A stretch of DNA of 46,158 bases from a virus (lineage: Duplodnaviria; Heunggongvirae; Uroviricota; Caudoviricetes), in IMG/VR virus record IMGVR_UViG_2859799533_000010. The stretch is one strand, 5' to 3'. The position numbers are program-made. Below, in pieces: positions 1 through 3,000 of the stretch; position 1 is the first letter of the stretch; each line of letters starts with the position of its first letter.

Positions 1-3000
1 TTGTCGCTACATGATAAATTATTAATGCATAACTTCGCATTAGCCAATAAAAAAAGCCCTGACTTCATATCTGAACTTCCTCAAATTGAACCTAAACCAT
101 ACAGCAATGGACATAAAATTAAATGGATAAACCACACACTTACTAGCACTGAAGTTACTCCCCCTGATAACCTGATTAAAATATGCATATTGATTGAGTC
201 AGGGGAAATTGCTATAACATCAGTAAGTGATATTGCCAATTTACTTGGAGTTCCTGCTGGCCAATTACTTTATATACTATATCGTAAAAAAGATAATTAT
301 CGTACTTTTGAAATAGAAAAGAAGAATGGTAAAAAAAGAGTCATTAATGCTCCTTGTGGCGGTCTATCGATACTCCAAACGAGACTAAAGCCCGTTCTTG
401 AATATTTCTACAGGCCAAAGAAATCTGCTCATGGTTTTATAAAAGGAAAGAGCATCATTACTAATGCTGGGATGCATATTAAAAAAAATTTTGTCGTAAA
501 CATTGATCTAGAAAACTATTTCGAATCAATAAGTTTTGCTAGGGTTTATGGAATATTTAAAAGTAAACCTTTTAATTTTGCTCATCCTGCAGCTACTGTT
601 TTAGCTCAGTTATGTACTCACAATGGAAAATTACCTCAAGGTGCGTGTACATCGCCAATATTAGCAAATATTGCATCAGCTTCTCTAGACAAACAGCTCA
701 CCCAATTTGCAGGAAGAAAAAAAATATCTTATTCTAGGTATGCTGACGACATAACTTTTTCTTTCAATCAGAGAAATATTGATATAATCAAAAAAAACGA
801 CGACGGAAGTTATAGTCTTAGTGAAACTATAGACAATATTATTTCAAAAAATGGCTTTAAAATAAATTATGATAAATTTAGAGTTCAAACCAGAAATACA
901 AGACAAAGTGTTACTGGCTTAGTGGTTAATGATAAAGTTAACATTAACAGAAGATATATAAGAATTACACGTTCAATGATTCATAGATGGACAGATGATA
1001 AGCTAAAGTATGCACTTCTCTTTGCTACAGAAAAAGGATATCAGGCAAAGGATAATAACCACGCAATTCAAATTTTCCGAAATCATATTTATGGAAGGCT
1101 TAGCTTTATAAAAATGGTTAGAGGGAAAGACTATCCAGGATATTTAAAACTGATGTCATACATGAGTCATAACGATCCATTAAAAACCCAAGAAGGATTG
1201 CGAGCAATGAAAGAAACAGAAAACTTTGATGTTTTTATATGCCATGCAAGCGAAGACAAAAAAGACATTGCAATTCCAATATATGACGAGTTAACTAAAC
1301 TTAAAATTTCAGCCTTCATAGATCATGTTGAGATAAAATGGGGCGACTCCTTAATTGATAAAATAAATGCAGCACTAGTTAAATCAAAATATGTCATCGC
1401 TATTTTATCTGCTAATTCAGTCAATAAGGAATGGCCTCAAAAAGAATTAAGAGCAGTTTTAGCCAGCGAAATATCGAGTGGCGACGTAAAACTTTTGACC
1501 TTATTAAAAAAAGAAGACGAGGAGGTCGTAAACCTATCATTACCTTTACTTAGTGATAAGTTTTATATGGTCTATGATAATAATCCTGAAGTAGTCGCCA
1601 ACAATATTAAATCACTCTTACAACGATAATTCTCTCACAAAAGAAAATGTGCAGATTGATGCGTATTAAGTATTAATCTGCACATACAAAAAAATAATAA
1701 AATAATACATTTTTCATAACTTGTAGGTAACAACAATATATGTCGTAACGAATATTTGGATAACCTCTATACCCTATTAACCAACCAATTAACTCTATGT
1801 AATCTCGCAGCCTCAAAACCCGACTATTGTTCTCTTAACAGTCAGTTCACGTTCCATTCCGGCCTGAGCCCCATAACATGGAAGAAAAAACGCCCCCAGT
1901 CAGTCCAGCTTTCAGACAATCAGTGTGTCACCTGCCGATAATATTCTGAGTAGTTTTTTCAGCCCAGGCCTTTCGGACTTTGTACCACTGATTTTATCTT
2001 CAAAATCAGCGCGCATTCTTCGTAATCCAGCAAACTCTTGTATATGACGTTATTATGGCTACAGCAGTAACGATTATTCCATAACAGGTACTGTAGGCCA
2101 CTCAATATCCGGTGCAGTTGATGTGTCAACACGGTTCAGCAACACCCGATACTTTTTCCAGGCTTCCAGCAACGAGTTTTCTTCCTCCGTTGCGATTTTC
2201 AGATCTGCAGCATCCTGAAGCGGCGCAATATGCTCACTGGCTACCTGCATCAGGCTGTTTTTTGTTTCTTCCGCCTCCCGGATCCGGAACAGTTTTTCTG
2301 CTTCCGTATCCTTCACCCAGGCTGTGCCGTTCCACTTCTGAAACTCCCCTTCCGGAGATAACCAGGTGACATTTTCCGGTAACGGACCGAGTTCAGAAAT
2401 AAATAACGCGTCCCCTGATGCCACGTCATAAACTGTTTTACCCCGATGGTCTTCAACAAGATACCACGATGCATCATCACTGTTGAAAACAGCCACGAAG
2501 CCAGCCGGAATATCTGGCGGTGCAATATCGGTACTGTTTGCTGGCAGACCTGTATGAGGCGGAATATATGCGTCACCTTCACCAATAAATTCATTAGTTC
2601 CGGCCAGCAGATTATAAATTTTTATGGTCCGTGCTTGTTCACTCATTCTGAATGCCATTATGCAAGCCTCACAATATAGTTAAATGCGATGTTTTTGACG
2701 GTGTTTTCCGCGTTACCAGCAGCGTTAACGGTGATGGTGTGTCCATGTGAACCAATCGCAACCGAGTGCGTATGCGCACCAATACCTACAGTATGTGCGT
2801 GTGCACCTGCGCTTGCAGCAGTACCCGATACAGAGTGCGTATGAGCGCCTGCAGAAGAAGTGTTAACACTGTATTTAGAATAATCAGGTGATCCACTTCC
2901 CGGAGCACCACTGGAACCACCTGAAACAAATGTCATCGAATGGGTATGTGCACCGGCTGAAGCAGCCGTACCGCTAACACTATGGGTATGCGCCCCGGTG

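Follow-up and report, generated by a model that had tools for sequence, protein, structure and literature searches.

The RT-TIR gene and its reading frame

The window analysed here is the whole 46,158-nucleotide IMG/VR virus record IMGVR_UViG_2859799533_000010 (Caudoviricetes), and its left end carries a gene for a retron-type reverse transcriptase (RT) fused to a TIR domain. Together with a non-coding RNA (ncRNA) encoded upstream of it, this RT-TIR gene forms a two-part anti-phage system of one protein and one ncRNA, carried as prophage cargo. The coordinates of the features discussed below are given in Table 1.

The first letter of the window belongs to the TTG start codon of the RT-TIR open reading frame (ORF). 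The initial annotation, made from the sequence alone, had described a single 542-amino-acid ORF joining an RT to a C-terminal TIR domain and lying in a low-GC block convergent with the phage late genes. Both descriptions were borne out. The ORF appears as such in the ORF listing and is matched by the Pfam models RVT_1 and TIR_2, while the G + C content is 0.325 in the gene (1-1629), 0.381 in the spacer behind it (1630-2073) and 0.547 in the phage structural genes (2074-12000). The ORF is convergent with the tail-fibre genes, as the tail-fibre assembly gene (2074-2658) and the tail-fibre gene (2658-6011) both lie on the minus strand.

The same annotation had the ORF start at base 1, which was correct as a position. 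The window edge does not truncate the ORF, which is complete, as identical loci show. The reference for these comparisons was the locus of E. coli 13P477T (L001), which is 99.9% identical and in which base 1 of the window corresponds to position 6001. In L001, an in-frame TAG is found 4 codons 5' of the base-1 TTG, and AGGAG is located 6 nt 5' of it. The alternative start used in RefSeq, the ATG at base 25, gives the 534-amino-acid product WP_005025120.1 and lacks a ribosome-binding site of this kind. The longer form has eight additional N-terminal residues, MSLH(D/N)KL(L/R), which are kept in the Erwinia, Providencia and Edwardsiella relatives and diverged in Citrobacter (MSLHIKIL). Because the ribosome-binding site stands before the TTG and not before the ATG, and because the extra residues are conserved in relatives, the 542-amino-acid form is, to judge from the sequence, more likely to be the product than the RefSeq form. 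With either start the RT-TIR protein is intact, and nothing of it is lost at the window edge.

Domain composition and family assignment

The Pfam search placed RVT_1 at residues 105-306 (E 3e-19) and TIR_2 at residues 411-507 (E 2e-18), and the TIR model matched as well. The motifs quoted in the initial annotation were all located, namely NAGMH (the NAxxH motif) at 155-159, YADD at 247-250, VTG at 304-306, FDVFICHASEDK at 409-420 and WPQKELRAV at 478-486. They proved invariant in a 27-sequence alignment of relatives reaching down to 42% identity, in which N155/A156/H159, Y247/A248/D249/D250, V304/T305/G306, HASE, W447/G448 and W478/P479/E482 do not vary. With all RT and TIR motifs intact, the reading frame is plausible as that of a catalytically competent protein. 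The PADLOC and NCBIfam models and retron Ec67 align only from residues 70-74 onwards; the N-terminal extension in front of them is kept in the gammaproteobacterial relatives and missing from the shorter relatives of the 27-sequence alignment.

The assignment to a family was based on curated models, on sequence searches and on structure prediction. The NCBIfam equivalog NF042941 (Retron_TIR_antiphage) scored 670.8 bits against a cut-off of 600 and was covered over model positions 1-463 of 464. The best PADLOC model was RT-TIR_XII (620.9 bits, E 3.8e-187), followed by two sister fusion types, RT-Protease_XI and RT-Toprim_I-C, and then by other retron RT types; all 25 of the PADLOC matches listed are retron RT models. 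The NCBIfam model of the retron Ec67 fusion scored 315 bits, which is under its cut-off. In the sequence search of the PDB, the RT half found retron Ec67/Eco2 first (E 1e-41, residues 71-329) and Ec86 second (E 2e-33), and the TIR half was closest to the NAD+ hydrolase AbTIR (E 1.6e-16) and to TcpB (E about 1e-16). E482, the Glu of a W-x-x-x-E helix motif, aligns opposite the Glu of the AbTIR segment WTNYEL. The Glu of a segment of this type is the catalytic residue of TIR NADases.

An AlphaFold model built with the 27 relatives reached a mean pLDDT of 86. When it was searched with Foldseek, the best matches were the cryo-electron microscopy structures of Eco2, 9lm3 and 9i2f (E 1e-27). The retron RTs (Eco2, Ec86 and Eco7) all outranked the group II intron, DGR, DRT and Abi RTs, and 17 retron RT chains preceded the first group II RT.

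The RT and TIR profile searches and the PADLOC run that had been proposed as checks thus gave matches to RVT_1, TIR_2 and RT-TIR_XII. The assignment of the RT to the retron clade was upheld by PADLOC, NF042941 and Foldseek alike, with the group II and Drt2 models far under their cut-offs, and the proposed bacterial TIR domain of the NADase or signal-generating type agrees with the alignment to AbTIR and TcpB and with the invariant Glu of the catalytic type. It is practically certain that the protein is an RT of retron type XII ('Retron-TIR').

The upstream msr-msd RNA

An ncRNA had been predicted to lie outside the window, and in the identical loci it was found there. In L001, a predicted msr-msd RNA of 142 nt occupies positions 5833-5974, corresponding to 27-168 nt upstream of base 1. 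Within it, CGGCTCTGCC / GGCAGAGCCG form a perfect 10-bp inverted repeat (5836-5845 / 5962-5971), the end of which is 29 nt from the TTG. A sigma-70-like sequence, TTTACT-17-TATGAT, ends 12 nt before a1 and is a consensus match only.

The RNA was aligned for E. coli and the loci of nine relatives (two of Erwinia, two of Serratia and one each of Salmonella, Citrobacter, Providencia, Edwardsiella and Yersinia). Its layout of a conserved 5' part, a variable centre (the msd segment) and a conserved 3' part is the classical retron pattern. The 5' part consists of a1, UUAAAU and the msr hairpin GAGG-UUGUUUCG-CCUC, and the 3' part of UUGCGNAAAGUGAUU followed by a2. Among the ten aligned Enterobacterales sequences, compensatory double changes were detected at 5 of the 11 a1/a2 pairs and at 2 of the 6 pairs of the msr hairpin; the variants of the a1/a2 pairs include CUGCC/GGCAG, CCGCC/GGCGG, CCACC/GGUGG and UCGUC/GACGA. 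The proportion of paired cells was 98.3%, compared with 33-45% when the partners were slid by 1-3 columns, and none of 500 shuffles reached the observed covariation. Inward extension of the a1/a2 stem was tried on the alignment and failed. The pairing AUCAC/GUGAU at the ends of the msd segment forms in most sequences without covariation and, for this reason, is not claimed.

The covariance model R1, built from the alignment, found an independent copy directly 5' of a Pseudoalteromonas RT-TIR gene (54 bits, E 6e-10), in which the a1/a2 stem is again compensated. R1 matches were obtained in 11 loci, and a search of the window itself gave no match. Among more distant loci (L002-L011, L028, L030 and L052), only a marginal match in the Pseudomonas locus L005 was returned, with E 0.07 over 33 sources and E 0.008 in a search of five alone. 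Enterobacterales and Pseudoalteromonas are therefore the only groups for which the RNA consensus is established.

Distribution and genomic neighbourhood

A gene at least 99% identical to the RT-TIR gene is present in 83 of 5,426 complete E. coli genomes under the name 'TIR domain-containing anti-phage reverse transcriptase', and the exact 534-amino-acid sequence occurs on 756 contigs of a large protein collection. The 335-nt upstream spacer has at least 99% identity in the same 83 genomes and carries no annotation there; RNA and gene co-occur in 83 of 83. A blastn search (distant mode) of deposited phage genomes gave no match to the gene. Scanning genome contigs for the pattern YxRYADD yielded about 12 RT-TIR genes among the 79 loci listed, the rest being mostly other retron RTs, since the pattern is common to them. 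In the E. coli genome NZ_OY757949.1 the gene is split by IS1A, and the annotation there has one protein for the 'reverse transcriptase domain' and another for the 'TIR domain'.

The initial annotation had also allowed for an accessory gene beyond the window. This was not supported: no neighbour, upstream or downstream, recurs across the loci of the nine relatives. Type XII is a single-protein system, labelled 'single gene' by PADLOC, so an accessory gene is not expected. The neighbours in the reference E. coli locus, a DinI-like gene on the 5' side and a frameshifted recombinase gene on the 3' side, are both absent as recurring neighbours from the relatives' loci. The DinI-like gene (L001 5405-5665) stands at the extreme end of the prophage, with prfC on one side and the retron ncRNA on the other. 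A functional link of the retron to it was rejected, as the gene is absent from every relative's locus.

A P4-type primase gene is found upstream in four of the relatives' loci (L081, L082, L083 and L088), and a fragment of a primase gene stands at the contig end in a fifth. The L085 relative sits between P2 gpA and portal genes, the L084 relative is near psu/ogr genes, and the others are among unrelated genes. Relatives are thus lodged in the variable cargo regions of P2-like prophages and P4-like satellites, whereas the window copy has a lambdoid carrier: one and the same cassette of gene and RNA travels among mobile elements of unrelated kinds. The sites that relatives occupy in P2 and P4 are hotspots for defence genes, as Rousset et al. 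2022 reportedly described.

Prophage setting and other features of the window

The prophage of 13P477T is lambda-like and lies between prfC and yjjG. Its order is the DinI-like gene, the retron, the tail, head, lysis and regulatory modules and the integrase; the retron start codon and the integrase gene mark the two ends of the part covered by the window. As low-GC cargo, the retron fills the space that separates the prophage end from the tail-fibre genes.

Table 1. Positions of the RT-TIR gene, its domains and further features in the window.
Feature	Position	Strand	Remarks
RT-TIR gene, complete	1..1629	+	542 aa (amino acids) from TTG at base 1; stop codon 1627-1629; ORF listing
N-terminal extension (aa 1-69)	1..207	+	Predicted helix, beta-hairpin, helix; AlphaFold 2 pLDDT 76-87
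Retron RT domain (fingers, palm, thumb; aa 70-405)	208..1215	+	Pfam, PDB, Foldseek, motifs
C-terminal TIR domain (aa 408-542)	1222..1626	+	HASE 415-418; WGDS 447-450; putative catalytic E482 in WPQKEL
Low-GC cargo block	1..2073	.	GC 0.33-0.38; retron gene and decayed recombinase gene; abuts tail-fibre assembly gene
10-bp inverted repeat	1648..1684	.	TGTGCAGATT ... AATCTGCACA; intergenic, where the RT-TIR and phage genes converge; read directly
Decayed invertase-type recombinase gene	~1813-2043	-	'recombinase family protein, frameshifted' at the matching NZ_CP019273 position (RefSeq; pseudogene)
DNA methyltransferase gene	27111-28172	-	Pfam N6_N4_Mtase E 2e-42; PADLOC MTase_II E 2e-151
IS110 family transposase gene	28433-29452	-	DEDD_Tnp_IS110 and Transposase_20
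IS3 family transposase gene	34772-35662	+	HTH_21 and rve
272-aa ORF	43965-44783	-	Adjoins the integrase gene; low-GC block (0.36, 44001-45000)
Integrase gene	44935-46158		Right end of the window

The inverted repeat behind the RT-TIR gene may act as a terminator. Only when read on the minus strand is it followed by a T-run. The terminator scan downstream of the gene called nothing, and the hairpin was passed over because its loop is 17 nt long. The recombinase remnant further downstream is probably derived from a switch for tail-fibre inversion. Rfam gave a partial match to IS009 at L001 8117-8200 on the minus strand (about 2117-2200 of the window), with 82 bits where the gathering score is 117. 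The match is truncated by the 5' limit of the searched stretch and lies inside the tail-fibre assembly gene; most likely it reflects the origin of the Rfam family in a conserved phage gene and not a separate RNA.

Neither Pfam nor PADLOC nor NCBIfam gave a match to the 272-amino-acid ORF that adjoins the integrase gene at the opposite end of the prophage. The ORF is present in 19 complete E. coli genomes, always annotated as 'hypothetical protein'. Its place is taken by a dGTPase-family gene in 13P477T, and the site may be a further slot for cargo or defence genes. Among the scanned ORFs there is no restriction partner for the DNA methyltransferase, which is probably an orphan methylase of the phage. 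At the two transposase genes, which belong to insertion sequences, the prophage is probably disrupted.

Proposed mode of action and alternative explanations

The architecture of the protein is that of retron type XII, described by Mestre et al. 2020 as a clade-8 retron RT fused to TIR_2 (PMC7736814), and the earlier remark that RT-TIR retrons had already been catalogued was accurate. In that paper, Gao et al. 2020 are cited for anti-phage defence mediated by the type XII 'Retron-TIR' and for the requirement of the fused domain (PMC7736814). The Retron-TIR of Shigella dysenteriae NCTC2966 is the tested representative, and it restricted phage T5 in another laboratory (bioRxiv 10.1101/2022.06.09.495361). 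According to a commentary on Gao et al., defence needs the synthesis and structure of msDNA (PMC7699616), a short single-stranded DNA that remains attached to the protein. The family is catalogued, curated and experimentally precedented, and this exact gene is already named by a curated NCBI equivalog model. A literature search for the accession WP_005025120 found no paper. The structure paper on Eco2 of February 2026 states that there is no structure or mechanism for fusion retrons except type I-C; in Eco2, the msDNA restrains the fused effector and phage nucleases act as the trigger, and its authors suggest the same for type XII (PMC12916289).

By analogy, the RT of the window system would bind the msr hairpin and copy the msd segment into msDNA, and the resulting RT-TIR/msDNA complex would keep the TIR domain inactive. 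A phage product damaging or modifying the msDNA (nucleases in the case of Eco2) would free the TIR domains, which would self-associate and hydrolyse NAD+ via E482. The metabolism of the infected cell would then halt before the release of phage progeny (abortive infection), and the prophage would benefit by the exclusion of competing phages. This chain as a whole, NAD+ depletion included, appears to us reasonably probable.

No observation contradicts the identification of the system; several bear on the proposed mechanism and on the RNA. The steps proposed for type XII are transferred from retrons in general and from Eco2/Ec67, no mechanistic paper on type XII was found in the literature, and a sequence search of the PDB found no structure of an RT-TIR fusion. 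The RNA of the window's own genome is presumed from the identical loci. The Rfam scan of the upstream region and the gene, with E values up to 10, returned no retron msr family, its output being otherwise the IS009 match in the tail-fibre assembly gene and chance matches; in Mestre et al., the structured RNA family of type XII is given as 'nd', which we read as not determined (PMC7736814). Moreover, the branch-point G, from which the 2'-5' branched msDNA of retrons is primed at the inner end of a1, could not be placed, as no G between a1 and the msr hairpin is invariant: six genera have one, and Providencia, Edwardsiella, Serratia and Yersinia have none. Nor does the stem close on its inner side with a pair of opposing Gs, the arrangement shown in drawings of types I-A and II-A. 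Finally, the initial annotation had proposed looking for an upstream msr-msd bracketed by a1/a2 repeats and containing a long msd hairpin. The a1/a2 stem and the msr hairpin were found, but none of the 10 sequences folded showed a single long hairpin in the msd segment.

A non-textbook msd fold may hold for type XII because the msDNA of Eco2 also departs from the textbook hairpin, forming a three-way junction across the trimer (PMC12916289). In a more specific version of the proposal, the type XII ncRNA would depart from the textbook plan and an Eco2-like msDNA would bridge RT-TIR protomers and hold the TIR domains apart, until loss of the DNA on infection leads to assembly of an active NADase. 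We put this forward only tentatively and consider it rather doubtful. If true, a nucleic-acid scaffold would be a negative regulator of TIR assembly, which is so far undescribed.

A different possibility is that the TIR domain acts as a Thoeris-like signal generator. On infection it would produce a cyclic ADP-ribose isomer and thereby activate another protein, an effector with an unlinked gene, instead of killing by NAD+ depletion itself. AbTIR and TcpB, the closest solved relatives of the TIR domain, make such isomers, and there is a weak NCBIfam similarity to ThcB4 of Thoeris type III, which however amounts to only 28 bits against a cut-off of 220. No ThsA-like (SIR2/SLOG/Macro) or other effector gene is adjacent to the RT-TIR gene, and none recurs in the loci of the nine relatives. 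A mobile system in need of an unlinked effector would not travel as one gene, and the PADLOC label points in the same direction. Since no effector travels with the gene, this explanation is improbable.

Still less probable is that the gene is a decaying, truncated or inactive remnant of the prophage. It adjoins a frameshifted recombinase gene in a prophage that carries insertion sequences, and one E. coli genome has IS1 inside the gene. The reading frame, however, is intact with all catalytic motifs present, gene and RNA are at least 99% identical in 83 genomes, and the exact protein is found on 756 contigs. Membership of the RT in the DRT/UG, AbiA/AbiK or group II intron class, which would work without msDNA, is refuted and has next to no probability: the RVT_1 fold is common to all of them and weak group_II_RT_mat and Drt2 matches exist, but these scored 64 bits against a cut-off of 300 and 35 against 390, every PADLOC match listed is a retron model, NAxxH and VTG are invariant, a covarying a1/a2-msr RNA lies directly upstream, and Foldseek ranks retron RTs first.

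With the assignment to retron type XII retained, the left end of the window is a real, intact and experimentally precedented anti-phage system, the RNA half of which lies beyond the edge and is unannotated in RefSeq. The copy in the window adds little to the field, since it belongs to a catalogued family for which curated models exist and whose role in defence has been tested. A possible use is the covariation-supported consensus for the type XII ncRNA, and the branch point and msd fold, which are at odds with the textbook picture, are the only part with residual novelty.

Comparison with known systems

The closest known system is type XII itself, as represented by NF042941, RT-TIR_XII and the S. 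dysenteriae NCTC2966 retron. On the basis of architecture and model score, the window system corresponds to it in having the same domain order, a single protein, an upstream ncRNA and the same RefSeq name. It differs in its carrier, which is a lambdoid prophage and not a P4-like satellite or P2-like prophage as in the type XII relatives, and no other difference of substance was noted.

The msr hairpin and the AUUUGU-like leader of Ec67 presumably resemble the RNA of the window system. Eco2 (Ec67), the type I-C RT-TOPRIM retron, has the closest RT by both sequence and fold, belongs to the same RT clade 8 (PMC7736814) and is likewise a single protein with a fused effector. Unlike the TIR domain of the window protein, its effector is a TOPRIM RNase that nicks tRNAs, and it does not have the N-terminal extension of about 60 residues. 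The mechanism of Eco2, a trimer held by msDNA and triggered by the phage nucleases DenB and A1, has been solved (PMC12916289).

AbTIR, TcpB and ThsB of Thoeris have the TIR fold and the catalytic Glu motif in common with the window protein. They are, however, stand-alone or coiled-coil TIR proteins, and Thoeris needs a separate ThsA, none of which is linked to the window gene.

Ec86 (Eco1), of type II-A, is also a retron RT, as reflected in its second place in the PDB search. Its msr hairpin has a loop that we take to be similar, of the UUGUUUCG type. In contrast to the window system, the effector of Ec86 is a separate nucleoside deoxyribosyltransferase-like protein, and its msd forms a long hairpin.

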